From a virus (taxonomy: Duplodnaviria; Caudoviricetes): a stretch of 59,972 bases of DNA. Within the stretch, counting starts at the first letter, position 1; every line of letters begins with the position of its first letter. The position numbers were made by a program, and so were the translations under genes. Below the pieces are notes generated by a model, which searched no databases, was not told the DNA's origin, and saw nothing but the letters and a program-made list of their open reading frames with translations. Where the stretch lies: the IMG/VR virus record IMGVR_UViG_3300025137_000039, positions 1 through 59,972 of that record; one strand, given 5' to 3'. Below are positions 3 to 52,850 of this stretch, one piece after another.

Positions 3-101
3 GATGTAGGAAACAATGATTACATCTATCAGGTGATTCAAGAGAGTGTGGATGAGATTACAGAAGAGAATCTAATGTCATATCAGCAGGAGTTAGTCTA
101 A
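3..101 (+). CDS. 3' part of hypothetical protein (truncated by window start)
   Basis: Frame open from the window edge (DVGNNDYIYQVIQESVDEITEENLMSYQQELV*) to TAA at 99-101, 1 nt before the next ATG. Confidence 0.6.
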   Translation, partial: DVGNNDYIYQVIQESVDEITEENLMSYQQELV

Positions 102-1144: not shown

Positions 1145-1173
1145 TTGACTATGTGGGGCAAATGAGTTATACT
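1145..1173 (+). promoter_or_regulatory. sigma70-type (early) promoter
   Basis: TTGACT-17 nt-TATACT; the spacer carries one copy of the 13-bp repeat. Confidence 0.75.
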
Positions 1174-1199
1174 ATGTGGAGCACATGTATGGGTCACAT
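1151..1199. repeat. three ATGTG-N3-CACAT-like palindromic repeats over the promoter and leader
   Basis: ATGTGGGGCAAAT 1151-1163, ATGTGGAGCACAT 1174-1186, GTATGGGTCACAT 1187-1199. Confidence 0.8.
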
Positions 1200-1203
1200 A
1201 GTA

Positions 1204-1386
1204 ATGCCCTTCTCCTCTAAGTTTCCTAATCTAGGTAAGACTGTGAAGACTAGAATCCCTGAATCATGTTATCACCATGTCATCCTAATACTGGATGAAT
1301 ATGAGAGGATTGCAGAGGCAAAAGGAACCATCTTTCTAGAACAAATGCAAGGAAGATTAGAGGAAAGTCTGACTAACATAGTGTGA
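1204..1386 (+). CDS. 60-aa putative DNA-binding protein (ribbon-helix-helix-like)
   Basis: ATG 1204 lies downstream of the promoter, whereas the track's 1153 start lies inside it; GKTVKTRIPES beta-strand-like motif followed by amphipathic helices. Confidence 0.6.
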   Translation: MPFSSKFPNLGKTVKTRIPESCYHHVILILDEYERIAEAKGTIFLEQMQGRLEESLTNIV

Positions 1387-1388
1387 TC

Positions 1389-1454
1389 ATGTGGGGCACA
1401 TAGAATGCCAGTGTGGGGCACATATGTGGGGCATATAGTTTATATGGGGCACAT
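1389..1454. repeat. four 13-bp RTRTGGGGCAYAT repeats
   Basis: ATGTGGGGCACAT 1389-1401, GTGTGGGGCACAT 1411-1423, ATGTGGGGCATAT 1424-1436, ATATGGGGCACAT 1442-1454. Confidence 0.85.
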
Positions 1455-1503
1455 GAAATAAAGGTGTAAATAAATGTACCTGGGTTTTGTTATCTAAGCG
1501 TGC

Positions 1504-1532
1504 AGTCTATCACACACTCTGAGAAATGTCAA
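1504..1532 (-). promoter_or_regulatory. minus-strand sigma70-type promoter pointing into the repeat array
   Basis: Reverse complement reads TTGACA(1532-1527)-17 nt-TAGACT(1509-1504). Confidence 0.65.
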
Positions 1533-1568
1533 GACCACACAGACACTTCCCCAACTGCACATGATCCC

Positions 1569-1597
1569 TTGACAGACACACTAAAATGCCCTATATT
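1569..1597 (+). promoter_or_regulatory. sigma70-type promoter
   Basis: TTGACA-17 nt-TATATT. Confidence 0.75.
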
Positions 1598-1631
1598 GTA
1601 AGGGTAGAGAAGAGATAATCATTACACTTAC

Positions 1632-1660
1632 TAGTCCTGAGTATGACTGTAAACTGCTTA
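1632..1660 (+). ncRNA. abiF-like pseudoknot RNA motif
   Basis: TAGTCCTGAGTATGACTGTAAACTGCTTA: stem AGTC/GACT, loop GAGTA can pair with downstream TGCTT; resembles the GTCCTGAG-ATGAC-AAACTGCT pattern recalled for abiF RNA. Confidence 0.55.
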
Positions 1661-1688
1661 ACTACACACACTGAATCTCATTTTTATT

Positions 1689-1781
1689 ATGTCAAACACA
1701 CAGATCTTTGATGCACTGGAAGCAGCAGAGAATGGCAGTGATTTGTTGATGGTACTGGAGGCAATTGAGGCACTGTACTGA
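1689..1781 (+). CDS. 30-aa acidic micro-protein
   Basis: MSNTQIFDALEAAENGSDLLMVLEAIEALY*, downstream of the promoter at 1569. Confidence 0.55.
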   Translation: MSNTQIFDALEAAENGSDLLMVLEAIEALY

Positions 1782-1798
1782 TACTTAGTGAGAGTGCT

Positions 1799-1834
1799 AT
1801 GTGTTACACATGGGTTTTCTTATGTGTAACACAC
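1799..1834. repeat. two further ATGTG-N3-CACAY palindromes
   Basis: ATGTGTTACACAT 1799-1811 and ATGTGTAACACAC 1822-1834, just upstream of the 1848 promoter. Confidence 0.7.
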
Positions 1835-1847
1835 AGGTCCACAGTGG

Positions 1848-1876
1848 TTGACACATAGGGGGACATGTGGTAGACT
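1848..1876 (+). promoter_or_regulatory. sigma70-type promoter
   Basis: TTGACA-17 nt-TAGACT with TG immediately upstream (extended -10-like). Confidence 0.7.
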
Positions 1877-2324: not shown

Positions 2325-3104
2325 ATGGCAAAAGGATTTACTGTAAAAGCAAAAACCCCAGTAAGGAATACAGAAGGACCTGAATGGGATATTGCTTCTA
2401 TTAAGGAGAGAATGAAAGGCAAGACAATTGTATTTTGCCTACCAGGACGTGGCGTATCATATACATTTTTAAAGAACTTTGTACAACTGTGCTTTGATAT
2501 GGTACAGAATGGGATGAGTATTCAAATCAGTCAAGATTACTCATCCATGGTAAACTTTGCACGTTGTAAGTGTTTAGGTGCTAATGTATTACGTGGACCA
2601 GATCAGATTCCATGGGATGGAAAGTTAGAGTATGATTATCAATTATGGATTGATAGTGATATTGTGTTTAGTACTGAGAAGTTCTGGCAACTATGTGATA
2701 TGGCACTAGATGCTGAAGGAAATGAGAAAAAGATTGTTTCTGGATGGTATAGTACAGAAGATGGAAAGACTACATCAGTAGCACATTGGTTAGATGAAGA
2801 TGACTTCAGAAACAATGGTGGTGTAATGAATCATGAGATGGTAGATGGTATTACAAAACGTAAGAAACCATTTACTGTAGATTACACAGGATTTGGATGG
2901 GTAATGATTCAGAAGGGTGTCTTTGAACATGAAGGACTGAAGTATCCATGGTTTGCACCTAAGATGCAAGTATTTGAATCTGGTGCAGTACAAGATATGT
3001 GTGGTGAAGATGTCTCATTCTGTTTAGATGCAATTGACGCAGGATTTGATATTTGGTGTGATCCACGTATTCGTGTTGGACATGAGAAGACTAGAGTAAT
3101 CTAA
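2325..3104 (+). CDS. GT-A fold (GT2-like) glycosyltransferase
   Basis: DxD motif in YQLWIDSDIVF, GFGWVMI, GEDVSFC, and RVGHEK near the C-terminus. Confidence 0.8.
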   Translation: MAKGFTVKAKTPVRNTEGPEWDIASIKERMKGKTIVFCLPGRGVSYTFLKNFVQLCFDMVQNGMSIQISQDYSSMVNFARCKCLGANVLRGPDQIPWDGKLEYDYQLWIDSDIVFSTEKFWQLCDMALDAEGNEKKIVSGWYSTEDGKTTSVAHWLDEDDFRNNGGVMNHEMVDGITKRKKPFTVDYTGFGWVMIQKGVFEHEGLKYPWFAPKMQVFESGAVQDMCGEDVSFCLDAIDAGFDIWCDPRIRVGHEKTRVI

Positions 3105-4396: not shown

Positions 4397-4798
4397 ATGC
4401 CCACTCAGAGGATAAGTAAACCATTTAAAGATGTAAGTGCTACTTTTCAAATCAATCCTTTGAATAGTGATTTGATTGGATTAAAGAATGCTAATGCAAT
4501 CTCAAGATCCATTCGTAATTTAATATTAACAATAAGAGGGGAAAAACCATTTGATTTATCACTTGGTTCTAATGTGAATAATTTGTTATTTGAAAATCTA
4601 GATTTTATTACAGCATCTAGTATTAAATCTGAAATTGAAAATACCATCAAAAATTATGAACCAAGAGTCAAATTAAATGATGTATTTGTTAAAGCAAATA
4701 CAGACAGAAATGCATTTGATGTTCAGATTACATATGACATCATTGGTATTGAAGCAGACGCACAAGATCTATCATTCTCTTTAGAGCTCACTAGGTAA
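4397..4798 (+). CDS. gp25: baseplate wedge subunit gp25
   Basis: SIRNLILT-GEKPF...LGS...LFEN...I.NYEPRV motifs of the GPW/gp25 family; synteny with gp6. Confidence 0.92.
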   Translation: MPTQRISKPFKDVSATFQINPLNSDLIGLKNANAISRSIRNLILTIRGEKPFDLSLGSNVNNLLFENLDFITASSIKSEIENTIKNYEPRVKLNDVFVKANTDRNAFDVQITYDIIGIEADAQDLSFSLELTR

Positions 4799-6895
4799 AT
4801 GCCTTTAGTTAATTTTACAAATCTAGATTTTAATCAGATAAAAGATTCCTTAAGGGATTATCTTCGTGCGAATTCAAACTTTACTGATTATGATTATGAA
4901 GGTTCTAATTTATCAACAATCATTGATATCTTAGCATATAATACTTATTTGAATTCATATAATGCAAATATGGTTTCAAATGAAGTTTTTATTGATAGTG
5001 CTACATTAAGAGAAAATGTAGTTTCACTTGCTAGAAACATTGGTTATGTTCCAAGACCTAGAGGTGCAGCAAAAGCAAATGTTTCCTTTGCTGTTGACAT
5101 GACAGGTACTACTACAGTATCAGTTACACTTAAAGCAGGTATTGTAGCAGTAACATCAAATTCATTTTCTGGACAAGGTTTTACATTCTCTATACCAAAA
5201 GATATAACTGTTGCAGTTAATGCTAATAAACTAGCAATATTTGATTCAATTGTAATATATGAAGGAACATACATTACTCAAAGTTTTAATGTAAGTTCTA
5301 GAGTACCAAATCAAAAGTATATTTTAACTAATGCTGGTATTGATAGCAATCTAATTGAAGTAAATGTACGTGATTCATCACAATCAAATATTTCAAGAAA
5401 CTTTACGCAGTCAGATAGTTTATTTGACTTAGATGGATCATCACCAGTTTACTTTATACAGGAAGTAGATAATGAAAGATATGAATTATTATTTGGCGAT
5501 GGTATATTTGGATTACCAGTATCTGAACCAAATGTGATAGAAGCAAGTTATATTGTTTCAAACGGAAGTGATGCTAATAATATTTCTCAGATGAATTTTG
5601 CTGGTCAATTAGTAAGCAATAATAATGCTGCAATCACAGCAAATATAACATCATTGACTGTAGATCAATCATCTTATGGTGGTTCTGAAATTGAAAGTGT
5701 GGAATCAATTAAAAAATATGGAACTCAAATTTATGCATCACAAAATCGTGCAGTAACTGCAGTTGATTATGAAGCAATGATTCCTAAAATTTATCATGAA
5801 ACAGAATCAGTTTCTGCATTTGGTGGAGAAGATCTTACACCACCTCAATTTGGTAAAGTTTTCATAAGTGTTAAACCAATCAATGGTGTGTTCCTTTCAA
5901 CTGCAATAAAAACTGACATTGCAAGAGAATTAAAAAAATACTCTGTTGCAGGAATCATACCAGAAATTGTTGATTTAAAATATTTGTTTGTTGAAACTGA
6001 TTCATATGTTTACTATAATGAAAATAAAGCTCCTAATTCAGAAGTAATATTGGGTCTAACAAGAAATAATATTGTTAGATATTCTGATTCAACTGAACTT
6101 AATAAGTTTGGTGCCAGATTTAAATACAGTAAATATCAAAAAATAATTGATAATACACATATTGCTATTACATCTAACATAACAACTGTTCAGATGCGTA
6201 GAGATCTTGAACCACTGTTGAATACATTTGCTGAATATGAAATTTGTTTTGGTAATAGATTTCATGTAAAAAATCATGGTCATAGTCCTGTATCAAACGG
6301 AACTGTAATTGGATACAATATAAAATCATCTGGTTTTAAAGTATCTGGAATTACCAATACTTTATACCTTGGAGACAAACCAAATACTGGACTGAAGACA
6401 GGAACTATCTTTATGTTTAAATTAAATTCACCAACAAATCCTGTTATTGTAAAACAAAATATTGGAACTATTGATTACATTAAAGGAGAGATAATGCTTT
6501 CCCCAATAAAGATAATTTCTACTGAGGTAAATAGAGGTGAACCACTCATTGAAATATCTGCAAATCCCTTCTCTAATGATGTAATTGGTAAGCAAGATCT
6601 TTATCTTCAACTTGATACAAACAATGTGACACTTAGTACTGTTACTGATGAAATTGAATCTGGTGATGATATTTCTGGTAGTAATTATGTTGTAACATCA
6701 TCTTATGGATATGGCACTCTTGTAAGAGGCACACCAGTTCTTACTACAGAACAATCAGATAATGTATCTCTTACTGGTTTAATCACTGGTGCTGACAATG
6801 CTACTACTGAAGTAGCAGCAGGTACAAATATTACAACATATACAGTTACAACTGGTATGAATGGTTCCACTTCTTCTAATACAAATTCCTACTAA
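4799..6895 (+). CDS. gp6: baseplate wedge subunit gp6
   Basis: LDFNQIK...FTDYDYEGSNLS...DSATLRENVVSLARNIGYVP, FGDG, QNRAVTAVDY. Confidence 0.95.
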   Translation: MPLVNFTNLDFNQIKDSLRDYLRANSNFTDYDYEGSNLSTIIDILAYNTYLNSYNANMVSNEVFIDSATLRENVVSLARNIGYVPRPRGAAKANVSFAVDMTGTTTVSVTLKAGIVAVTSNSFSGQGFTFSIPKDITVAVNANKLAIFDSIVIYEGTYITQSFNVSSRVPNQKYILTNAGIDSNLIEVNVRDSSQSNISRNFTQSDSLFDLDGSSPVYFIQEVDNERYELLFGDGIFGLPVSEPNVIEASYIVSNGSDANNISQMNFAGQLVSNNNAAITANITSLTVDQSSYGGSEIESVESIKKYGTQIYASQNRAVTAVDYEAMIPKIYHETESVSAFGGEDLTPPQFGKVFISVKPINGVFLSTAIKTDIARELKKYSVAGIIPEIVDLKYLFVETDSYVYYNENKAPNSEVILGLTRNNIVRYSDSTELNKFGARFKYSKYQKIIDNTHIAITSNITTVQMRRDLEPLLNTFAEYEICFGNRFHVKNHGHSPVSNGTVIGYNIKSSGFKVSGITNTLYLGDKPNTGLKTGTIFMFKLNSPTNPVIVKQNIGTIDYIKGEIMLSPIKIISTEVNRGEPLIEISANPFSNDVIGKQDLYLQLDTNNVTLSTVTDEIESGDDISGSNYVVTSSYGYGTLVRGTPVLTTEQSDNVSLTGLITGADNATTEVAAGTNITTYTVTTGMNGSTSSNTNSY

Positions 6896-6901
6896 TAAGA
6901 A

Positions 6902-9900
6902 ATGGCGGTAGATAGAATTAAGTTCAAGGATATTTTATCCTCCCAACTCCCTAGTTACGTTAGGGATGATTTTCCGCTGCTTGTAGAATTTCTTACAGAA
7001 TATTATTCTTCACAAGAAGTAAAGGGCGCAACATTTGATTTAATTCAAAACTTAGATCAATATGTAAAAGTAGATGAACTATCTAATTTAAAGACTAGCA
7101 CTACTCTGCTTAATAATATTAATAGATCAACTTCATCTATTTTTACAAGTGATCAGACTAATTTTACAAATGGATTTCCAGAAAAGAACGGACTAATTCG
7201 TATTGATAATGAAATAATTAAATATGGATTTACTACTAGTAATAGTTTTGAAGATTGTGTTAGAGGATTTAGTGGTGTTACTGAATATATTGATACGTCA
7301 TTGCCAGATAAGCAAAAGTTTGAAAAAACAATAGCATCTTCACATGCTGCTAATGCTAAAATTGAAAATTTATCAATCTTATTTTTACAAGAATTTTTTA
7401 AAAAAGTAAAAGCACAAATTACTCCTGGATTTGAAGATAGAACTTTATCACCACAATTAAATCAAAAGAACTTTATTAAAAACTCTAATAGTTTTTACAA
7501 ATCAAAGGGCACAGATCAAGCATTTAAAATTTTATTTAAATCAATTTATGGATCAGATGTAGAAGTTATTAAACCAAATAACTTTTTAATAAGACCATCA
7601 GATGCTGATTATGTTGTATCTCAAGATTATGTTGTTGAACAGTATATTGGAGATCCATTAGATTTAAAAAATCGTACAATTTATCAATTCTCAACTAAAG
7701 CAAGAGGAACTGTAACTAAAGTTGAGAAAATTTTTGAGGATGGAAACTTTTATCAAGTTTCTATAGACTCTGGATATAATAGAGATATTGATGTAAGTGG
7801 AACTACTTTTGGTAAATTTGAACCTAACTCAAAAACAAAATTACTTGATAATGTTTCAATTGGATCCACTATTCTAAATGTAGACTCAACAATTAGTTTT
7901 CCATCATCTGGCGAACTATCTCTTTTTGATAATTTAAATGATGAACATATACTTTCATATAGTGATAAAAATCTTACTCAATTTTTGGGGGTTACTACAA
8001 CTACAGGTAATTTTAATAAAAAGATTGATGTAAGATCTAATGATTATAGTTATACAAATGTTGGTGTTGGAACTGGAACTGAGATAAGAATAAGAATTAC
8101 ATCTACACTTAAAAATATAAACTTTATTGACCAACCTTGTAATTATACAAAAGGAGATAGAATAAGTATTAAATCTATTGGTTTATCTGATGATAGTCTT
8201 TATTCTAACAATTGGTTTTACAATAATAAAAATAATTATGATGTTGAGTCAGTATCTGAAATAGACGCAAATAATAATCTTTACAAATTTATTACTAAGA
8301 ATAAAAACTTATTACAAATTGGTTATAATTTAGTTATAACTGATAAAAACATTAATGATGAAAATGTTGGGGAGGTAACATCAATTGAGAGTGATAAAAT
8401 ATTGAATGTAAGATTATCCAAACCTATACAGACACAAAATTTATCTAATAATTTTAATATTGAAAATCAAATACTCAAAGGAAATTCTATTGAGTATCCA
8501 AATATTAATAATATAAATTCCAATATATTAAATGTTTATAAAAACAATAAAAAATATCTTGTTGCATCTAATAGTATTCCAAATTATGAAGATAATTTAA
8601 ATCCATTTAAAAAAATATACAAATTTAGTGGATCTGCAAATGGAGATACTTTAACAATTTCAAAAACTAATGATCATGGTCTCTACAGTGGTGATGCAGT
8701 TTTTTATAATAAAAACACAATTGTAACTATTACTAACAATGAAGATGGTAACTCTTTTGAAGATACAACAGTTAATGGATTTAGTAATGTTGATGAATTA
8801 GTTTATTTTGTATTAAGAGTTGATTCATTCAATATAAAATTAGCAAAAAGCAAATCTGATCTTTTTAGCGGTAAATTTATTTTTCCAAATGGAAATGTTG
8901 TTGACAATACATTTACTTACTTTAAATTTTATAAAAAACAAATTGATGGGCAAAAAATCTTTAGAGAGATACGTGAACCATCTACAAATTCAGGAATTTT
9001 TAAAACAAAACCAGGAAAGACGGGAATTCTTATTAATGGTGTTGAAATTTTAAATTATAAATCAAATGATATTGTATATAATGGAGACATTATAGCATTT
9101 GATTTAACTAGTTCTGGTAATGATTATGATGTTATAAATCCACCTGTTTTAAAAATTTCTGATAGTTTTGGTAGTGGTGCTGAAGGTAAAACTCATATTG
9201 ACGGATCTCTATCAGAAATTAGAGTAATAAGTCCAGGGTTTGATTACACCAATCAACCAATAGTCACAATCAGTGGTGGAAGTGGTGAGGGTGCTGAAGC
9301 AGAAGTTAATCTAAAATTGATTCAACATAATGTTTCTTTTCTTGCTGGAATTGCATTAACTAATGGGACAGGGGGCGTTGATATAAACAATGATAAAATT
9401 GGATTTACAACATCACATAATTTCAGAGCAAATGAAGAAATTCAATATGAATCTGGAACTGCTACTGTTGTCACAGGTATAAGCACTAACTCAACTTATT
9501 TTGCTAGAATTGTAGACGCATCTACAATTACATTACATAATAGTTTTAATGACTCAAATACTGGGATTAATACAGTACAACTTACAAAAGTTGGATCTGG
9601 TAAGCAGTTCTTTAAAACAGTAAAAGATAAATCTATTATTTCAAGTATTGTTGTATCTAAATCAGGAAGTGGATATAAAAATTTTGAGTATAACATTCCT
9701 ACTTCTGGAATCAATACCTCACTGAATTTAATAACAATTAAAGATAACAGGTTTGCAAATGATGAAGTTGTAAATTACACACCAGGCACTTCAGATATCA
9801 GTGGTCTTTCTTCAACAACTGACTACTTTGTGAAAAAGAATGATGCAGATTCATTTGTTCTTTATGAAGTTGGTGTTGGATCTACAAATAAAAGATATTA

Positions 9901-12900
9901 TATTGATAATAATATTATCACAGATTTGCAATCAATTGGAAATGGATCATTAAATTACAAACCAATTAGTGTTTCAGTTCAAGGAACAAGTGGAGTAAGC
10001 ACTATTGGAACCAATGGTTCATTTAAAACTTTTGTTGAATGTGATGTTCAACCTATATTCAGAGGATCTATTATTGATGCGGGTGTAGTATCTGGAGGTA
10101 TTGAATATGGATCTCCTGAAATAATTAATTTTAACAGAAAACCAATTGTTACACTTGAAACTGGTTCAAGTGCTCAATTAACACCAATTGTGGATAATGG
10201 AACTATAACTGAAATTGTTGTTAATGATGGAGGAAGTGGATACAATAGTCCACCACATTTGACAGTATCAAAAGGACAATATTGTAAGATTACACCTATT
10301 ACTGTAAATGGTGTAATTACTGAAGTTAAAGTTCTTGACGGCGGAAAAAATTATAAATCAGATTCTTTAATTACCATTATTCCATCAGGAAATAGTGGAT
10401 CAGTTGAAGCCAGAATAAAAAATTGGACTATTAATAATTTTGAAAAAGATTTTCAAAATATATCTGATGATGATGGATTTTTAAGTGAAGGAAGTATTCT
10501 TGATACTTTAGAGTATTCTCATTTATATGCGCCAAGAAATTTGAGATCAGTTGTGTTTGGTAAAAAGTCAAACCAAGAAATTCAATATTCAAATACTGAT
10601 TTAACAAAAAATCAAAATCTTGAGGTAGATTCAAAATATCATTCTCCAATAATTGGTTTTGCTTATGACGGAAATCCAATTTATGGTCCTTTTGGATATG
10701 ATAAACCTTCTGGTGGACCAGTTAGGAGAATGTTATCTGGATATCAATTTAATCAGAATATAATTAATAGACCTCCAGTTTCTATTTTCCCTCTTGGATT
10801 TTTTGTAGAAGATTATTCTTATGATGCAATTGGTGATCTTGATGAGTCAAATGGAAGATTTTGTATTACACCAGATTTTCCTGCAGGAACATTTGCGTAT
10901 TTTACTACTGTAAAAGATCTTACTGATAGTTCAGGTCCATTTAAATATTTTAGAAGACCACAATTTCCATATTTAATTGGAAATACTTATCACAATAAAG
11001 AAAATGATTTTAATTTTAAAAATACATCAAATCATGTAGATTATGATATTGAATCTCAAAATTGGAAAAGAATCACTACACCAAACAATATTAACAATTT
11101 TACTGGTGTTAATTATGATTATATTTTCAATTCTAATAATATTAAAGAACAAGTAATTGATATTACTTCTGCATCAACAGGTAAGGTAGAAAGTATTGGT
11201 ATTATTACTGGTGGTTCTAATTATAGAAATAATGATAAAGTTTTATTCAATAAGCAAAACAATGGAAGAATAGCAAGAGGTAATGTTAGTAGTATTGAAG
11301 GTAAGAAAGTAGTTTTTGTTGATGCTTCCTCTACTACTTTTGATAATATAGAATTTACAAATGTTGGGTCATCTAACAAATTTGTAGGTTTTACCACTAC
11401 TCCTCATGGATTGGTAGATGGCAATAAAATTAATATTTTTGGTTTATCAAATTTCTATAAGGGTTTTGAGGGTTCTTATAAAATTGGTATTAATACAGGA
11501 TCTTATATATTGCTTAATAGTGTTGGTGATGTTTCTGTCACTGGAATGACAACTTTCTTTGAAATTGGAGGTGCTTTCCAGTTTCCATTCATGAGACCAA
11601 ATGATATTATTGGTATTGGTAGTGAGAAGGTGAAGGTATTAGCACCAGACCCTCTCAATGGTAGAGTAAGGGTTTTAAGAGCACAGGAAGGCACTGTAGG
11701 GTCTGCTCATACAGGTTTAACAAGACTGTTCCAAGATCCCAAATTGTTCACAGTTAATGTTGGAGCAATCAAGTCATCAATTATTTCAGTTCTTAACACA
11801 GAATATTATTTTGATCCAAGTGAAAGAGTTGGTGTTGGAAGTCTTACAACCATAGGAGCAGGTAAAACACTTTCCATAACAAATCCTGGAATTGGAATTA
11901 CGTCTGTCTTTGTTTTAGAGAAACAGATTTATACTCCTAATCATATATTTAAAATTAATGATAAGGTAAGTTACAATTTTGGTGATGGATCACCAATATA
12001 TTATTGGAATGGAAAATCTGGAATTGCAACTGCAGTTCTCTCTGGAATCTCTACTCTTTTTGTTGCTCCAATTGGTCCTAACTTTATTGGACTTTCAACA
12101 AATAAAGTGGGATTAGGTACAACAGGATCATATGTTGGAGTTGGAACTGATACTGAATTAATTTATTTTACTGGTATTGGAACAGGAAATTATCATAGTC
12201 TAAAAACAAATTTTGACAATGTTGTTACAGGAAGAGCAGAAAGAAATAAAGTTGTTGTATCTACTGCATCAACACATGGTTTATTTGTTAATGACTTTAT
12301 TAATTTTTCACTTAATCCACAAAACATTGAAACAATAGTTGTTAAGTATAATGATCACAATAGAAGAATAGTCTTTAATCCATATACATTTACAGCATCT
12401 GATGTAAATGTTACTAAAAATAATATTGGAGTAAGCACCAATTCATTTAAAACAGGTGATAAAATTATTTACACATCATCTTCACCTGTAAGTGGATTAA
12501 AAAATCAATCAATGTATTATGTTTATGCTGATACTTCTACATCAGTAAAATTTGTTGAAAATAAATTTGAACTTGAACTTGTTAGTCCAAATTTTATAAA
12601 TTTAAGTTCTACTGGATCAGGTTCTCTTGCAAGAATAAATCCTTTTATTGAAGGTTTTAAAAATTTAACATTGAGGTTTGATTTATCTGATATATCTTTG
12701 TCTTTTATTTCTAATTCAGTTAAATATTCTGCATTTAGATTAGAACTTTACAAAGATCCTGACTATGTACAACAATTCCTTGCTACAGGTAATGAATCTG
12801 ATTTTGAAGTACAACGAAATGGTATTGTTGGCACTGATGGATCTTTGACATTAAAAATGTCAGAATCACTACCAAATACTCTATATTATAATTTTATTCT

Positions 12901-15900
12901 TGACAATGAATTGTTTATTTCTGATGAGAAAAAAAGAATTATTGATCAAGATGTAAAATCATTTAATACTATTTCTGCAAGTTCTTCTCCTTATGATGGA
13001 CCTCAAATAGTTTCTGGTATTGGTACAACTAGTTTTGAATACGAATTAGATACACTTCCAGAAAGAGTATCTTATGGTGGAACAATTAATACAGCAAATC
13101 CAAATTATACTACAAGTTCTTTAAAAGTTTATGGTGCTATCTCAAAAATTGATGTAGTTGATAATGGATATGGATATAAATCAATACCAGGAATATCTTC
13201 TATAAAAACTAGTATTGGTACTGGAGCAATTGTTTATGGTGAATCTAAAAACATTGGTAAAATTTTAAAGACTGAATTTTCTTCAAGAAATATTGGATGG
13301 AATTATCCTACTGATAAGACCTTAAAATTAACAGCAAATCTACCAGAGATTGTTGAGATTAACCCACTTTCATCATTTAATACAATAGGTATTTCATCAG
13401 CAGGAAAAAATTACTTAGTTCCACCAAATTTAAAAGTAAGAGATGGTCTTACAAATGAATTAGTTAAAGATGCAGTTTTAAATTACAAACTAAATGATAC
13501 TCAAGTTAATATTGTAAGCAATACGAGAGGAATTTTTAACATTACTCCTAGAATTATTGCAACAAATAATTCTAATGGGTTTACAATTTTATCTGTTACC
13601 AACACTAATAATTTAATAAGACTTAATTTATCTAATCAATTTAGTAATAATTCTGATTATCCATTTAAAATTGGTGAAAAAATTATTGTTGAAGGTATTA
13701 GTATTGGTATTAATACAACTGGTTTAGGGTATAATTCTAATCAATATGAAGATTCTTTATTTGAAGTTGTAGGTGTCAACACTGCTCTTGGTGGTTTTGG
13801 TGCTTATGTTGAGTATTCCCTTGTAGATAAATTAGATGATGGTGAATTTCCTGGAAACGTAGTTTCACTGAATGGATCTTCTGTAGTTCCTGAGTCATTC
13901 CTTCCAATTTTTAATATAATTTTACAAAAAAACAATTATTTGACAGATGAAAATGTTACTTGGGGTGAATATAATGGTGTTGTTGATTTTTATGATGAAA
14001 ACACTGATATTTTAAAAATAAAAACTCAATATGAACTTCCAATAGGAACTTTAGTTGTAGGATCATCTTCTCAAACAAGAGGCATTGTAACTAAAAATTT
14101 AAATTTTGAAGCTGAAATTAATACAGGTGCTGGAACAACTATTAACTATAGTTGGAGTAGGAATACTGGATTCCTTAATGACACTCTACAAAGAATTCCA
14201 AACAATGAATATTATCAAAGATTCTCATATTCATTAAAATCTGAAATTCCTTTCAAAACATGGGATAATACTGTTGGTTCACTAAATCATACTGCAGGAT
14301 TTAAAAAATACTCAGATCTTCAAGTTTTAAGTCAATCTAATGACACAAATCTTGTAGTAAATAGTAAAGATTCTGAAGTAAGTTTTCTTGTTGATATTGT
14401 AGGAGAAGGTGATTTAAATTGTGTTTATGATTTTGATTCAGTTAAAGAAGATATTAATTATGTAAATGGAAATCTAGTATCTAATAATATATTATTTGAC
14501 AATGTTATACTATCTGATTATTTCCAATCAATTGGCAATAGAGTATTATCTGTTGATGATGTAAGTAATGAATTCAATAGTAATGAAAGAAGTGAGCAGT
14601 ATGCTAGAGTCTCTGAGTTTGATGTAAAAACTAAATTTAATAAAACATTACATTATATTAAAGATACACAATTTACTGATGAAAGACAATTCCAAATTTC
14701 TACAGTAATTCAAGATGATGATTTTATATACATGCAATCTTATGGAACTTTAAATACATTTCCATATTTGGGATACATGGATGCTAGTGTTGGTGGAGGC
14801 ACTGGGCAAGAAGGTTGGAATTTTAGATGGTATCCTGTTAAATTTCAATTTAATAATTATGATGTCTCTTCTTTCTCTTTTAATTTTAATCCTGGAGATG
14901 CTGGGGTAGCATCTACATCATTTGGTAATGTAATTGATTATAATAGTCAGGAAGTAAATATCCCAGCTGCCACCACAACAACTATTGTATCTGTTGGAAC
15001 TTCATATAGATCATTAAAAGTTCTTAATTTAATAGCAGAAGGAGATAGTCATCATGCAGCAGAATTGAACATTCTGCATGACGGAACAGATGTCACAATG
15101 CTTGAATATGGTAACTTGGATGAAACATCGTCTCCATTGTTTAGTGGTATTGGAACTTATGGCGCTAGAATTTCAGGTGTCAATTTAATTGTTGAATTTC
15201 ATCCAACCACAAGTGTTGCCTCTACTTCATATAGTCAAGTAGTTTCATTTGCAAGAGGAAATACTACCACTGGTGTTGTTACAATGAACAGTGCCCAAAT
15301 AGGTTCAGCATATACTTCAATACCTTCTTCTGGATCTCCTACTGCTCATGTTTTAAGTTCTTACGATGATCCATACAGTGCATCATATCAAATTATAACA
15401 GTTGAAGATACTGCAAATAATCAACATGAATTTTTTGAATTTAATGTTCTTAATTCAAAAACAATACCAACCCAACACTATGTTGAATGGGCAAATATCC
15501 AAACTCATTCTGGATTAGGAACTATTGGTGTTAATACAACTGGAAATACAGTGCAGGTTGTTTACACACCAAATTCTGGAATTGCTGTTGAAGTAAAATC
15601 CTTTAAAGTTGATGCTAGAGAAATTGATCCACTCAATTTAATTTCCTCAGTACCTTTTGATGATGGTGAGTTCAAGACTCAAACTGGTAATTATTTTGGT
15701 ACAAAAAGTTCTATTAATACAAAATTTAATTTAACACATAACGGTGATAATATATTCTCAAGATTATTTGATGGGAGTTCTACTGTAGGTGTTAACACAT
15801 CTACAAATCATATTTCAATCCCAAATCATTTCTTTAATTCTGGTGAGGCAGTAAAATATAGTACAACTGGAACAAGTCAAAAAATTAATATTGCCTTAAC

Positions 15901-18900
15901 AGATTTTGGAGGGAGTGTAGGATCTACCTCTATTTTACCTGAAAATCTATTTGTTGTAAAAATTGATAATGCAAAAATTGGATTTACAACAAGTGCTTCA
16001 GATGCATTGAAAATAAATCCAACATTGATTGGTATTACTACTGTAGGAGTTGGTAATTCTCATTTTGTAACCACAACAAAGCAAGATAGTAAGGTTTTGA
16101 TTAGTGTTGATAATATGATTCAAGCACCTCTTTCTATAACAGGTATTGGAGCAACTCTTTCTAATAACATTATATTTGACACAACATTTTTAACAAGTGG
16201 ACTATCTACAGTACGAGCAAATGATGTGATTAAAATTGATGATGAATATATGTTAGTAACTAGTGTAGTTGGTTCTGGACTAACAGTAACTGTTAGGAGA
16301 CCAATTCTTGGTTCAAATGTTGCACCTCATGGAATAGGAGCAACTATAACTAAGTTTACTGGTAATTTTACTATTAATGATAATATACTCAATTTTACAT
16401 CAGCTCCTTATGGAAACATACCATTAGGTACTACTACTAATCCACCTGATGAAAGAGATTGGTCTGGAATAGCAACAAATTCTACTTTTAGTGGAAGAGC
16501 ATTCTTAAAAAGAGGTGCGCAAAATACAACAAATGAAATTTATCACAAAAATCATGTATTTGATGATATGTCTAATGAATTTGTTGGAATAAAGAGCGAG
16601 TTTACATACAAATCAAATGGACAAGATGTAATTGGTATTACCTCTTCAACTGTAGTATTAATTAACAACATTTTTCAATCAACTCAAGGAATTCTTCCAA
16701 ATGAAGTTGGAGAATATCAAAACTTTGAAGAGGTTGGTGTTACATCAATTAGATTCTTGGGTATTGGTACTCCATTAGGTGATGATATTAATAGAGCAAA
16801 CATTCCTATTGGAGGTCTTATTGTTTCTGTGGGTTCTCAAGAAGGTTTTGGTTATCAACCATTAGTTGCTGCAGGTGGAACAGCAATTATATCTGGTCTT
16901 GGAACAGTGTCATCTGTCTCTATTGGAAATAGTGGTTCTGGTTATAGAACTGGATTAGGTACAGTATACAATGTGGGTGTTCAAACTTATTTTGGTGTAG
17001 TTCCTGTATTGACAAATATTGGAACAGCACTTGTGACTGATGGACACGTAACAAGCATTAATATCACAAATCCTGGAATTGGATTTACTAATACAAACGC
17101 TCCAGTTGTAATCATAGATGAACCATTGAGTTACACAAACATTCCTCTTGAATATTCCTCTACATCAGCAGTTGGATCAGGAAGAAGTGCCACAATTGAT
17201 ATAAAAGTTGGACAAGGATCAAGTATTATTGATTTTGAAATTAAACATCTTGGATATGGATATGGCAATAATGAAATTCTTACAATTCCTGCTGGAGGAC
17301 CAACAGGAATTCCTACAGATTCTTCTCTATCATTTAGTGAATTTAAAATATCTATTGAGGAAACTTATGATGATCAATTTAATGGATATAGTGTTGGTGA
17401 ATTCCAAATTCTTGATAGGTTTGATGACCAGTTTGATGGTTTTACAAGAGTATTTTCTCTTACATCAGGAGGAAATCCAATTTCTATCAAATCATCACCT
17501 GAATCAAATATTCAAGTAGATCAAACTTTACTAATTTTTGTTAATGATATACTTCAGGTCCCTGGATTATCATATTCTTTTGAGGGAGGAAGTCAAGTTA
17601 TATTTAATGAAGCACCTAAAGGTCCAGCTTCTGGAGTTCCAAAAGGAGACACATCAAGAGTTCTTTTCTATAAAGGTGCAGGTGATATTGATGTTCAATT
17701 TACTGAAGTTCTTAAAACTGTAAAACCAGGTGACACACTTGATATCAATCATAATGTAGAATTGGGACAACCTATTACTCTTGACGAAGATATTAGAGTT
17801 GTCACTGGAATTACTACACTTGATAGTGTAAAAACTAATCAATATCCTGGTCCTGGCATTTCAATTGATCAGACAGTTTCTAGACCAGTTACATGGTGTA
17901 GACAAAAGATTGATAAGGTTATAAATGGTCAATTTATTGGAAAAGACAGAGAAAAATATGAACCAAACATTTACCCTGCATCTTTCCTCACTAAAGCAGT
18001 CAGTATAAGCACAACGATTACATATGTTGATAACATAAGACCATTGTTTAATGCAAATAATGAGTCTACTTTGAGAGATTTCCAGAACAATGTTACTTTA
18101 ACATCACAAAATCCAACATCATCAGCAACAGGAACTGCAGTTGTTTCAACATCTGGTACAATTACATCAATTAATATCACATCTGGAGGATCTGGATATG
18201 ATTTCACACCTACTGTAACAATTGCTGCACCAGGTGGAATAACTACATCACAAGCAACAGGTATTGCAACTGTTACTAGTGGTATTGTGACTGGAATTTC
18301 TATCACTGGAGTTGGAACAGGTTATGATACACCTCCACTTGTAATTATTCAACCTCCAAAAATTTCTAGGGAAAAACTTTCTATTATAAATTATTCTGGT
18401 GACTATGGAATAATAGTTGGTCTAGGAAGCACCAATGTTGGTTTACAGAAACAATTATTCTTTGATACTTTTATTCCTGTTGATTCATATATGAGAAATA
18501 ATTCCCTTGTTGGAACTGGAATTACAATTTCAGGAATAAGCACAGGTGATCATATTGTAATTAAAGATACTTTTATATCAATTGGTGGAACATTTGCTTC
18601 AAATGTTGGTGTAGCAACTACAGCACTTGATTGTGTTTATGAAGTTGTATCAGGAATTACAACAGTTGTGGAATTTGTTGGTTATTCAACATCAGTTGTA
18701 AGAATTACATGCAATGTTGATAATTATGGTTCTGGTATTGCCCATACTAGTGGTTATTTCTTAGGTAACTATAGTTGGGGTAAAATTGAGTTTAGTGAAA
18801 GAGTCAATCCTATTAGTTTTGAATTTTTTGGAGAGAATGGTGTTACTGGCATCTCTTCTTCTGGTCTTGTTCAAAGAACAATCCCATTAAAATTTAAAAA

Positions 18901-18910
18901 CTATTCCTAA
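6902..18910 (+). CDS. gp7: giant baseplate wedge initiator gp7-like protein (4002 aa)
   Basis: Between gp6 and gp8; N-terminal QLPSYVRDDFP...FYKSKGT; YYQRFSYSLKS...HTAGFK core; many GxGY beta-repeats; YHYH-like segment. Confidence 0.85.
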   Translation: MAVDRIKFKDILSSQLPSYVRDDFPLLVEFLTEYYSSQEVKGATFDLIQNLDQYVKVDELSNLKTSTTLLNNINRSTSSIFTSDQTNFTNGFPEKNGLIRIDNEIIKYGFTTSNSFEDCVRGFSGVTEYIDTSLPDKQKFEKTIASSHAANAKIENLSILFLQEFFKKVKAQITPGFEDRTLSPQLNQKNFIKNSNSFYKSKGTDQAFKILFKSIYGSDVEVIKPNNFLIRPSDADYVVSQDYVVEQYIGDPLDLKNRTIYQFSTKARGTVTKVEKIFEDGNFYQVSIDSGYNRDIDVSGTTFGKFEPNSKTKLLDNVSIGSTILNVDSTISFPSSGELSLFDNLNDEHILSYSDKNLTQFLGVTTTTGNFNKKIDVRSNDYSYTNVGVGTGTEIRIRITSTLKNINFIDQPCNYTKGDRISIKSIGLSDDSLYSNNWFYNNKNNYDVESVSEIDANNNLYKFITKNKNLLQIGYNLVITDKNINDENVGEVTSIESDKILNVRLSKPIQTQNLSNNFNIENQILKGNSIEYPNINNINSNILNVYKNNKKYLVASNSIPNYEDNLNPFKKIYKFSGSANGDTLTISKTNDHGLYSGDAVFYNKNTIVTITNNEDGNSFEDTTVNGFSNVDELVYFVLRVDSFNIKLAKSKSDLFSGKFIFPNGNVVDNTFTYFKFYKKQIDGQKIFREIREPSTNSGIFKTKPGKTGILINGVEILNYKSNDIVYNGDIIAFDLTSSGNDYDVINPPVLKISDSFGSGAEGKTHIDGSLSEIRVISPGFDYTNQPIVTISGGSGEGAEAEVNLKLIQHNVSFLAGIALTNGTGGVDINNDKIGFTTSHNFRANEEIQYESGTATVVTGISTNSTYFARIVDASTITLHNSFNDSNTGINTVQLTKVGSGKQFFKTVKDKSIISSIVVSKSGSGYKNFEYNIPTSGINTSLNLITIKDNRFANDEVVNYTPGTSDISGLSSTTDYFVKKNDADSFVLYEVGVGSTNKRYYIDNNIITDLQSIGNGSLNYKPISVSVQGTSGVSTIGTNGSFKTFVECDVQPIFRGSIIDAGVVSGGIEYGSPEIINFNRKPIVTLETGSSAQLTPIVDNGTITEIVVNDGGSGYNSPPHLTVSKGQYCKITPITVNGVITEVKVLDGGKNYKSDSLITIIPSGNSGSVEARIKNWTINNFEKDFQNISDDDGFLSEGSILDTLEYSHLYAPRNLRSVVFGKKSNQEIQYSNTDLTKNQNLEVDSKYHSPIIGFAYDGNPIYGPFGYDKPSGGPVRRMLSGYQFNQNIINRPPVSIFPLGFFVEDYSYDAIGDLDESNGRFCITPDFPAGTFAYFTTVKDLTDSSGPFKYFRRPQFPYLIGNTYHNKENDFNFKNTSNHVDYDIESQNWKRITTPNNINNFTGVNYDYIFNSNNIKEQVIDITSASTGKVESIGIITGGSNYRNNDKVLFNKQNNGRIARGNVSSIEGKKVVFVDASSTTFDNIEFTNVGSSNKFVGFTTTPHGLVDGNKINIFGLSNFYKGFEGSYKIGINTGSYILLNSVGDVSVTGMTTFFEIGGAFQFPFMRPNDIIGIGSEKVKVLAPDPLNGRVRVLRAQEGTVGSAHTGLTRLFQDPKLFTVNVGAIKSSIISVLNTEYYFDPSERVGVGSLTTIGAGKTLSITNPGIGITSVFVLEKQIYTPNHIFKINDKVSYNFGDGSPIYYWNGKSGIATAVLSGISTLFVAPIGPNFIGLSTNKVGLGTTGSYVGVGTDTELIYFTGIGTGNYHSLKTNFDNVVTGRAERNKVVVSTASTHGLFVNDFINFSLNPQNIETIVVKYNDHNRRIVFNPYTFTASDVNVTKNNIGVSTNSFKTGDKIIYTSSSPVSGLKNQSMYYVYADTSTSVKFVENKFELELVSPNFINLSSTGSGSLARINPFIEGFKNLTLRFDLSDISLSFISNSVKYSAFRLELYKDPDYVQQFLATGNESDFEVQRNGIVGTDGSLTLKMSESLPNTLYYNFILDNELFISDEKKRIIDQDVKSFNTISASSSPYDGPQIVSGIGTTSFEYELDTLPERVSYGGTINTANPNYTTSSLKVYGAISKIDVVDNGYGYKSIPGISSIKTSIGTGAIVYGESKNIGKILKTEFSSRNIGWNYPTDKTLKLTANLPEIVEINPLSSFNTIGISSAGKNYLVPPNLKVRDGLTNELVKDAVLNYKLNDTQVNIVSNTRGIFNITPRIIATNNSNGFTILSVTNTNNLIRLNLSNQFSNNSDYPFKIGEKIIVEGISIGINTTGLGYNSNQYEDSLFEVVGVNTALGGFGAYVEYSLVDKLDDGEFPGNVVSLNGSSVVPESFLPIFNIILQKNNYLTDENVTWGEYNGVVDFYDENTDILKIKTQYELPIGTLVVGSSSQTRGIVTKNLNFEAEINTGAGTTINYSWSRNTGFLNDTLQRIPNNEYYQRFSYSLKSEIPFKTWDNTVGSLNHTAGFKKYSDLQVLSQSNDTNLVVNSKDSEVSFLVDIVGEGDLNCVYDFDSVKEDINYVNGNLVSNNILFDNVILSDYFQSIGNRVLSVDDVSNEFNSNERSEQYARVSEFDVKTKFNKTLHYIKDTQFTDERQFQISTVIQDDDFIYMQSYGTLNTFPYLGYMDASVGGGTGQEGWNFRWYPVKFQFNNYDVSSFSFNFNPGDAGVASTSFGNVIDYNSQEVNIPAATTTTIVSVGTSYRSLKVLNLIAEGDSHHAAELNILHDGTDVTMLEYGNLDETSSPLFSGIGTYGARISGVNLIVEFHPTTSVASTSYSQVVSFARGNTTTGVVTMNSAQIGSAYTSIPSSGSPTAHVLSSYDDPYSASYQIITVEDTANNQHEFFEFNVLNSKTIPTQHYVEWANIQTHSGLGTIGVNTTGNTVQVVYTPNSGIAVEVKSFKVDAREIDPLNLISSVPFDDGEFKTQTGNYFGTKSSINTKFNLTHNGDNIFSRLFDGSSTVGVNTSTNHISIPNHFFNSGEAVKYSTTGTSQKINIALTDFGGSVGSTSILPENLFVVKIDNAKIGFTTSASDALKINPTLIGITTVGVGNSHFVTTTKQDSKVLISVDNMIQAPLSITGIGATLSNNIIFDTTFLTSGLSTVRANDVIKIDDEYMLVTSVVGSGLTVTVRRPILGSNVAPHGIGATITKFTGNFTINDNILNFTSAPYGNIPLGTTTNPPDERDWSGIATNSTFSGRAFLKRGAQNTTNEIYHKNHVFDDMSNEFVGIKSEFTYKSNGQDVIGITSSTVVLINNIFQSTQGILPNEVGEYQNFEEVGVTSIRFLGIGTPLGDDINRANIPIGGLIVSVGSQEGFGYQPLVAAGGTAIISGLGTVSSVSIGNSGSGYRTGLGTVYNVGVQTYFGVVPVLTNIGTALVTDGHVTSINITNPGIGFTNTNAPVVIIDEPLSYTNIPLEYSSTSAVGSGRSATIDIKVGQGSSIIDFEIKHLGYGYGNNEILTIPAGGPTGIPTDSSLSFSEFKISIEETYDDQFNGYSVGEFQILDRFDDQFDGFTRVFSLTSGGNPISIKSSPESNIQVDQTLLIFVNDILQVPGLSYSFEGGSQVIFNEAPKGPASGVPKGDTSRVLFYKGAGDIDVQFTEVLKTVKPGDTLDINHNVELGQPITLDEDIRVVTGITTLDSVKTNQYPGPGISIDQTVSRPVTWCRQKIDKVINGQFIGKDREKYEPNIYPASFLTKAVSISTTITYVDNIRPLFNANNESTLRDFQNNVTLTSQNPTSSATGTAVVSTSGTITSINITSGGSGYDFTPTVTIAAPGGITTSQATGIATVTSGIVTGISITGVGTGYDTPPLVIIQPPKISREKLSIINYSGDYGIIVGLGSTNVGLQKQLFFDTFIPVDSYMRNNSLVGTGITISGISTGDHIVIKDTFISIGGTFASNVGVATTALDCVYEVVSGITTVVEFVGYSTSVVRITCNVDNYGSGIAHTSGYFLGNYSWGKIEFSERVNPISFEFFGENGVTGISSSGLVQRTIPLKFKNYS

Positions 18911-52578: not shown

Positions 52579-52850
52579 TGTTTATTATTACAGTTGCAGG
52601 AAAAGAAAAAGATGGTGCATATTCTGTAGTAGATGATGAAGGAGAACAAGTCCTTTATATCTTTGAAGAAGAAGATGATGCAATGAGATATTCCATGCAG
52701 CTAGAAGAACTTGACTATCCTCTTATGCATGTGATAGAAATAGACGATGAACTAATGGTCCATACATGTGAGACACATGGACACAGATATACTATTATAT
52801 CTAAAAATGATATTGTGATTCCCCCAGATAAACCTGATGATACTGTTTAA
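52578..52850 (+). CDS. conserved hypothetical protein
   Basis: 90 aa, acidic, overlapping gp47 and gp46. Confidence 0.8.
   Translation: MFIITVAGKEKDGAYSVVDDEGEQVLYIFEEEDDAMRYSMQLEELDYPLMHVIEIDDELMVHTCETHGHRYTIISKNDIVIPPDKPDDTV

Follow-up and report, generated by a model that had tools for sequence, protein, structure and literature searches.

A 60-amino-acid candidate DNA-binding protein of a T4-like cyanomyophage encoded among arrays of 13-bp putative operators

Omega of pSM19035, CopG and proteins of the ParR/ParG type are small dimeric ribbon proteins with a ribbon-helix-helix (RHH) fold that act on runs of short direct or inverted repeats at promoters, and a Thr and an Arg of the strand read the bases. 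In the annotated record of phage P22, the immI region comprises the promoter Pant (14793–14821), the operator Oarc (14798–14818), arc (14861–15022) and, on the minus strand, sar (15021–15090) with its promoter at 15097–15125. Promoter/stem-loop cassettes (PeSLs) are described from other T4-type phages and are sparse in S-PM2 (PMC2839356, PMC4122927, PMC4503421). Here we describe a locus on a 59,972-bp virus contig (IMG/VR record IMGVR_UViG_3300025137_000039, used in its entirety and called the window below; CheckV completeness 30%) that derives from a T4-like cyanomyophage (Kyanoviridae). Its open reading frame (ORF) 1204–1386 encodes a 60-amino-acid protein and lies among nine 13-bp sites of the form ATGTG-N3-CACAT. 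We consider it likely (probability about 0.7), from sequence patterns, that this ORF encodes a self-regulating small DNA-binding protein that would bind cognate operator arrays and repress its own promoter. The central features are:

1145–1173, plus strand: P1, promoter of the small gene, sigma-70-type TTGACT-17-TATACT (10 of 12 positions as in the consensus)
1151–1163, unstranded: O1, GGG-class site ATGTGGGGCAAAT filling the −35/−10 spacer of P1 (1 mismatch)
1174–1186, unstranded: O2, exact-arm site ATGTGGAGCACAT abutting the P1 −10 hexamer, over the likely start site
1187–1199, unstranded: O3, degenerate leader site GTATGGGTCACAT abutting O2 (2 mismatches)
1204–1386, plus strand: gene for the 60-amino-acid protein of the MPFxxKYPxLGxTxxxRIP... 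family (family search, alignment, model)
1389–1454, unstranded: O4–O7, downstream array with starts at 1389, 1411, 1424 and 1442, all GGG class and in one orientation
1504–1532, minus strand: Pas, convergent promoter TTGACA-17-TAGACT with TG before the second hexamer (consensus scan)
1799–1834, unstranded: O8/O9, inverted pair of TAA-class sites ATGTGTTACACAT and ATGTGTAACACAC, a long hairpin being possible
1848–1876, plus strand: P3, promoter TTGACA-17-TAGACT just 3' of O9 (consensus scan)

The order of parts is identical to that of P22 immI: both loci have a very small phage gene with an operator overlapping its own promoter, and a convergent promoter immediately past the gene (the sar promoter in P22, Pas here). 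The strand-helix-helix topology predicted for the 60-amino-acid protein is also that of Arc, from which it differs by the lack of significant homology, a helix A about 7 residues longer and a conserved N-terminal MPFxxKYPxLG arm in its family. Here, 13-bp sites form arrays, with as many as 15 sites to a locus, and several specificity classes occur, whereas P22 has a single 21-bp operator, and no ant-like gene lies downstream. The predicted counterpart of sar would start from a promoter consensus, and contigs from RNA libraries cover the region, showing neither strand nor ends. In contrast to omega, CopG and ParR, the unit is a 13-bp near-palindrome with a variable centre and not a 7-bp heptad, spacings are 13, 20 and 23 bp, no partner ATPase or plasmid context is present, and the RHH fold is predicted in topology only. 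PeSLs share with this locus the dense strong sigma-70 promoters and palindromes among small ORFs of a hyperplastic region, the position beside conserved modules and the mosaic exchange at the elements (PMC2839356, PMC4122927). Unlike PeSLs, the palindromes here are conserved in sequence, lie inside a promoter spacer and are matched to a protein of the same cassette; single sites are poor hairpins, and the O8/O9 pair, ahead of P3, folds well. The working mode is probably Arc- or omega-like, new here being an unannotated family with several natural specificities in T4-like cyanophages.

All nine sites reported in an earlier note on this DNA, made from the letters alone, are present with 0–2 arm mismatches (none at 1174, 1389 and 1799; one at 1151, 1411, 1424, 1442 and 1822; two at 1187), and their centres are GGG, GAG, GGT, TTA and TAA, as listed there. 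The placement it gave is also borne out, with three sites in or after the promoter at 1145–1173, four past the stop at 1386 and two ahead of the promoter TTGACA(1848)-17-TAGACT(1876). The window holds four exact matches to ATGTG-N3-CACAT against 0.19 expected, a number reached in 0 of 100 shuffles. Three of them lie inside the site region; the fourth, at 52766 within coding sequence, is read as a chance match. With up to one mismatch, 8 of the 11 sites in the window fall into 1151–1834 (within 690 of 59,972 bp), while at up to two mismatches there is no excess over the whole window (38 observed, 46.9 expected); the signal is therefore a local cluster and not a genome-wide motif. Cores of the GGG class with full arms are found in the window only at 1151–1454. 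The same concentration is seen in the 115-kb record of a relative (L095), where 10 of 10 sites with up to one mismatch lie within 900 bp around the gene and a control pattern gives 0, so that an equal frequency of the motif across the genome, named in the earlier note as a ground for rejection, is not what we found.

Judged by sequence comparison, the 60-amino-acid protein is real and has a family of its own. A profile search of 1.84 billion representatives yielded 35 proteins at E ≤ 0.001, of which 15 reach E ≤ 1e-10; these family representatives are clustered at 50% identity. The family is phage-only and unannotated, and its aligned members share MPFxxKYPxLGxTxxxRIPxxxxxH...EYxRI...G. Close metagenome relatives have 73–97% identity, and codon changes relative to six relatives are mostly synonymous (20 synonymous versus 8 non-synonymous for L006). 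ORF 1204–1386, the only family member on the contig, is covered by RNA-library contigs from four studies, which carry neither strand nor transcript ends; stretches of the region that such contigs do not reach need not be silent. Searches of isolated phages (tblastn with the window protein and with its homologue P0015) gave nothing meaningful, the ESM Atlas queried with P0015 returned only unnamed viral clusters below 0.9, and searches of Pfam, PHROGs and NCBIfam matched the protein to no known family (best match phrog_2108, E = 0.053). Family and sites are undescribed in the literature that we searched, with subscription journals and supplements outside the search, which agrees with the earlier note knowing of no description in cyanomyophages; one published paper contains one of the 13-mers, merely as an unrelated control oligonucleotide.

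For comparison across phages we used 77 loci encoding the N-terminal motif, including the window and some contigs present in two collections; a degenerate pattern for this motif added 3 viral and 66 metagenome loci. Homologous ORFs keep their flanking arrays, contrary to the absence of arrays in related phages that the earlier note had named as another ground for rejection: 71 of the 77 loci have at least three sites within −200 to +700 of the gene, and the six closest viral loci retain the whole array. The six exceptions are two loci cut off at the gene (L097, L113), three with looser-armed sites (L120, L127, L139) and one with a different repeat (L126). Scanning viral contigs for exact 14-mer matches returned 87 stretches; those beyond the cassette contigs and the short contig L072 are single or unrelated matches, which we read as chance.

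Three loci show peculiarities of their own. Upstream of its gene L126, with T at residue 15, carries TTTTCCACAG, repeated four times in direct and once in inverted orientation, a repeat whose sole overlap with the 13-bp palindromes is the half-site TGTGG. In L154, the 90 nucleotides (nt) upstream show the first ~30 nt of the gene and the preceding site doubled in tandem, a partial duplication of the 5' end. L072 has five GGG-, GGA- or GGC-centred sites at 378–476, at the start of the contig; the 377 nt upstream contain no family gene, and this array resembles the distal array of L006.

The promoter layout is conserved along with the arrays. The arrangement TTGACT-[13-mer]-4 nt-TATACT-[13-mer] recurs in loci with GGG, TAA, GGA and GAC centres, and 35 of 48 loci with distinct proteins have a promoter of the form TTGNNN-16..18-TANNNT no more than 90 nt from the ATG. 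Across loci, site starts cluster at −53/−52, −30/−29 and −19 to −16 from the ATG, the first two being the recurring positions of O1 and O2, and further clusters lie 0–100 and 425–525 nt past the stop. Spacing between sites peaks at 13, 20 and 23 bp, and a locus may hold up to 15 sites. Relatives have GTGTGGGTCACAT with a single mismatch at the position of the degenerate O3. Aligned with the six relatives, the site arms have a mean column identity of 0.935, the site centres of 0.959 and the promoter hexamers of 0.976, compared to 0.81 and 0.70 for other non-coding columns. In the window, the sites at 1151–1163 and 1174–1186 overlap the P1 spacer and the likely start site, as expected for an autorepressor. 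Conserved operators in the −35/−10 spacer and across the start site fit the autoregulated switch that had been proposed, with repression itself as the presumed outcome.

The covariation of motif and strand residues that the earlier note suggested looking for is present. Loci were collapsed to 48 distinct full-length proteins, with two truncated ones dropped, and flanking TG-N3-CA cores were counted; four of the class assignments were made by eye and L126 was left without a class. The arms are constant (ATGTG/CACAT), whereas the central triplet changes from locus to locus but is uniform in any one of them, and residue 15, in the predicted beta-strand, predicts the dominant centre in 47 of 47 classed distinct proteins:

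Residue 15 = R: centre GGA/TCC, 16 distinct proteins (16/16)
Residue 15 = K: centre GGG/CCC, 12 distinct proteins
Residue 15 = K with N at residue 12: centre GAC/GTC, 2 distinct proteins
Residue 15 = L, I, P or N: centre TAA/TTA, 17 distinct proteins (17/17)

Each class occurs in at least two clades of a tree built without the strand columns. Independent pairs change in the expected direction (2/2, 1/1 and 2/2 on starred branches; 4, 3 and 3 on all branches), and the cognate centre is found in 286 of 341 sites. With 6 residue types, column 15 accounts for 0.90 of the class entropy, second among 59 columns. The pairing also makes chemical sense, in that basic side chains accompany G-rich centres and T/A centres are matched by aliphatic residues. 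Like the site arms, T13 and R17 hardly vary, and by their alternation pattern and by analogy to RHH structures these two residues would face the DNA. These patterns support the 13-mers as putative operators of the 60-amino-acid protein. Sites occur nowhere but around the gene, which makes the cassette self-contained, and at least four specificity classes (GGG, TAA, GGA, GAC) recombine among phages.

In the mechanism that we propose, the strong early promoter P1 would fire upon infection, and the accumulating protein would then fill O1 in the −35/−10 spacer, O2 at the start site and O3, shutting off its own transcription. The protein is most likely a dimer that would read DNA via an N-terminal two-stranded beta-ribbon in the RHH manner. 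Reading of the conserved arms (TG...CA) would fall to the invariant T13 and R17, and that of the central base pairs to residue 15 of each subunit. When occupied, O4–O7, which lie in the early transcribed region of Pas, would form a roadblock, or a boundary separating sense from antisense transcription.

In an AlphaFold2 monomer model on the family alignment, with a predicted local distance difference test (pLDDT) of 92, residues 1–19 are extended, with the predicted strand at 13–19, and two helices follow at 20–40 and 42–58. Two metagenome proteins of 124 amino acids, P0029 and P0043, are natural tandem fusions with two family domains per chain, which fits a protein working as a dimer. P0029 has one relative, 81% identical, and its model (mean pLDDT 69, below 50 in residues 45–69) has the elements E13-19/H20-39/H44-55 and E77-83/H84-103/H106-123. 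Since its two strands are the only ones in the model and both are assigned E by DSSP, we infer that they pair, ribbon-like. The strand-helix-helix topology of the RHH superfamily is thus present in the predicted models.

Profile comparison with known RHH proteins gave no significant relationship. None of 30 family members matches an RHH Pfam family at E ≤ 1, the profile thresholds of RHH_1 (PF01402) and Arc (PF03869) are not reached, a six-frame RHH_1 search of the window gave nothing at E ≤ 10, and hhalign against Mnt likewise gave no match to a known family. The hhalign alignment with the Arc alignment is in register through the strand, helix A, the Gly turn and helix B, with helix A 7 residues longer; R17-I18-P19 falls on R13-W14-P15 of Arc and AEAKG on AEENG. 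Fold searches with monomer and tandem returned generic helical matches, with no solved RHH protein among the matches listed. For the monomer, the best Foldseek E value is 9.3 and the best VIA-align match is a helical hairpin domain (Z 5.4, root-mean-square deviation 3.3, 45 aligned residues); for the tandem, the best values are E 3.1 and Z 6.0 (root-mean-square deviation 2.8, 63 aligned). Chain-wise fold searches suit RHH proteins poorly because solved RHH dimers consist of two chains. The description of the gene as RHH-like in the earlier note is thus consistent with the predictions in topology only, the 60-amino-acid protein being a candidate and not an established member of the RHH superfamily.

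Several observations weigh against a self-regulating operator-binding protein. No significant match to any DNA-binding family was obtained with Pfam, PHROGs, NCBIfam, PDB sequences or the six-frame RHH_1 search, and the hhalign probabilities of 0.55% against P22 Arc and 1.17% against the Arc alignment are not significant. The tandem model is of middling confidence, with strand orientation and packing unreadable in it. Abutting sites 13 bp apart lie on different faces of the helix, which is unusual for cooperative RHH arrays, and 13 of the 48 loci have no promoter by the TTGNNN-16..18-TANNNT pattern. As gene and sites are physically linked, their association can be inflated by co-inheritance; column 23, with eleven residue types, matches column 15 in its score (0.909), so linkage is a possible source of the association, and the sign test on independent pairs is underpowered (p 0.5–1). 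Finally, 55 of the 341 sites have a non-cognate centre, O8/O9 of the window among them.

The best surviving alternative, which we regard as unlikely, is that the arrays are replication-origin iterons or another cis-acting identity element, with the protein as their specificity factor and repression of P1 as a by-product. Plasmid Rep proteins recognise inverted repeats in the promoter of their own gene as well as direct repeats at the origin, and the origins of T4 are transcript-dependent. The same-orientation tandem sites past the gene with spacing peaks of 20 and 23 bp (about two helical turns), the strictly local system with cis sites and trans factor encoded together, the evolution of several specificities as in incompatibility determinants, and the strong promoters nearby would all suit such an element. 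On the other hand, known iteron initiators are far larger than 60 amino acids, some sites directly adjoin each other (13 bp) and both orientations are represented, and the operators inside P1 are fully explained by repression.

It is quite improbable that the 13-mers are RNA hairpins, terminators or PeSL-like promoter/stem-loop recombination motifs unrelated to the protein. The O8/O9 pair does fold at −21.7 kcal/mol (z −4.5) and the minus-strand array has a z of −3.3, a terminator-like match lies at 1797–1813, mosaic junctions adjoin sites and promoters, and PeSLs are known in other T4-type phages (PMC2839356, PMC4122927). Single sites, however, fold weakly (−2.6 and −3.4 kcal/mol, z −0.9 and −1.1), and the arms are conserved in sequence without compensatory change, with a 'loop' that is uniform per locus and tracks the protein. 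Recognition of double-stranded DNA is favoured because O1 lies in the untranscribed promoter spacer, both orientations occur inside one locus, and arm and 'loop' are conserved as sequence. The accessible parts of two PeSL papers treat cyanophages no further than the sparse S-PM2 cases (PMC4122927, PMC4503421), and these sites are described neither there nor in PMC2839356.

Binding of the sites by a host regulator or some other phage protein, with the small ORF as a passenger of the cassette, would accommodate a protein without a DNA-binding domain recognisable by sequence and an association partly yielded by linkage, but is very improbable, as residues 12 and 15 fully predict the centre class across clades, the sites occur only beside this gene, a host factor would leave four site classes among phages of similar hosts unexplained, and the family pattern has 0 matches in cellular genome representatives.

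With self-regulation through cognate operators as the preferred reading, the cassette is a concrete candidate for a 60-amino-acid protein with a 13-bp operator and a simple natural recognition code, a possible set of small orthogonal repressor/operator pairs, and a marker for modular exchange in variable regions of marine phage genomes. To our knowledge, T4-like cyanophages do not have the MotA/AsiA system of T4, and we know of no sequence-specific regulator encoded by these phages that acts on their early promoters. More speculatively, and with a good deal of doubt, the cassettes could be immunity- or incompatibility-like identity modules of T4-like cyanophages, their at least four operator/protein specificities, which differ chiefly in a single strand residue, being split by competition between co-infecting relatives. 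If so, the module would control something intolerant of cross-talk, for which an origin, a small RNA or an exclusion function would be candidates, and would be a counterpart of the immunity regions of temperate phages in phages without lysogeny; we take the source phage to be lytic.

The convergent promoter is a recurrent part of the cassette. TTGACA-17-(TG)TAGACT is found up to 300 nt past the stop in 25 of 42 distinct loci, in all four classes, compared to 1 of 42 after shuffling, and in relatives the downstream array always lies between the stop codon and this promoter. In alignment A1 the Pas hexamers are invariant and the spacer is variable. The transcript predicted from Pas would cross O7–O4 and run antisense to the gene.

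O8/O9 belong to the TAA class and so mismatch the resident GGG-class protein, a point absent from the earlier note. The window at 1470–1900 is nearly identical to L096, including the TAA-class pair at 1799/1822 and P3, and L096 encodes a TAA-class protein (GKTELMRFP); in L001–L004, the O8/O9 position is taken by a CCC/GGG pair. As this is the TAA-class block of L096 and the contig has one family member, O8/O9 are probably non-cognate to the resident protein, and from sequence they would be either relics of exchange or served by a protein encoded beyond the contig. The combination of a GGG-class gene with TAA-class sites therefore points to exchange between cassettes at or near sites and promoters. 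RNA-library contigs of two studies break exactly at 1847, which is another mosaic junction.

Two further features lie between the two site clusters:

1569–1597, plus strand: P2, promoter TTGACA-17-TATATT ahead of a 30-amino-acid ORF (11 of 12 consensus positions; conserved in alignment A1)
1689–1781, plus strand: 30-amino-acid acidic ORF behind P2, between the two site clusters (conserved in close relatives)

In close relatives this ORF always sits between both site clusters, and family searches gave no match for it. The consensus scan places plus-strand sigma-70-type promoters of the region at 1145–1173, 1569–1597, 1848–1876 and 2273–2301, and a single minus-strand one at 1532–1504.

Downstream, 1848–2040 consists of P3 followed by ~150 nt without a convincing ORF. 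G runs give way to C runs along this stretch, and a terminator-like hairpin (2007–2030) with a T run closes it. RNA-library contigs cover 1847–1978, and the stretch after P3 may be a small RNA or a leader. The small-RNA candidate at 1883–2040 folds no better than shuffles (z −1.35) and has no Rfam match; Rfam and tRNA scans of the window gave no match. Directly after the T run, at 2034–2047, lies an inverted GGG-class core that is one base longer, TATGCCCCCCATAT.

The assignment of the window to a T4-like cyanomyophage agrees with its gene content. ORF 424–747 is a Kyano_Gp96 protein (E = 7e-50), the product of ORF 2325–3104 has 81–86% identity to proteins of many Synechococcus myophages, and baseplate wedge genes, gp25- and gp6-like, are found at 4397–6895. 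The cassette lies 1–2 kb from the contig end, among small ORFs and ~3 kb ahead of the structural module, a setting in line with the early/late boundary at which it had been placed. Immediately 3' of the baseplate wedge genes, a single ORF of 4002 amino acids occupies 6902–18910.

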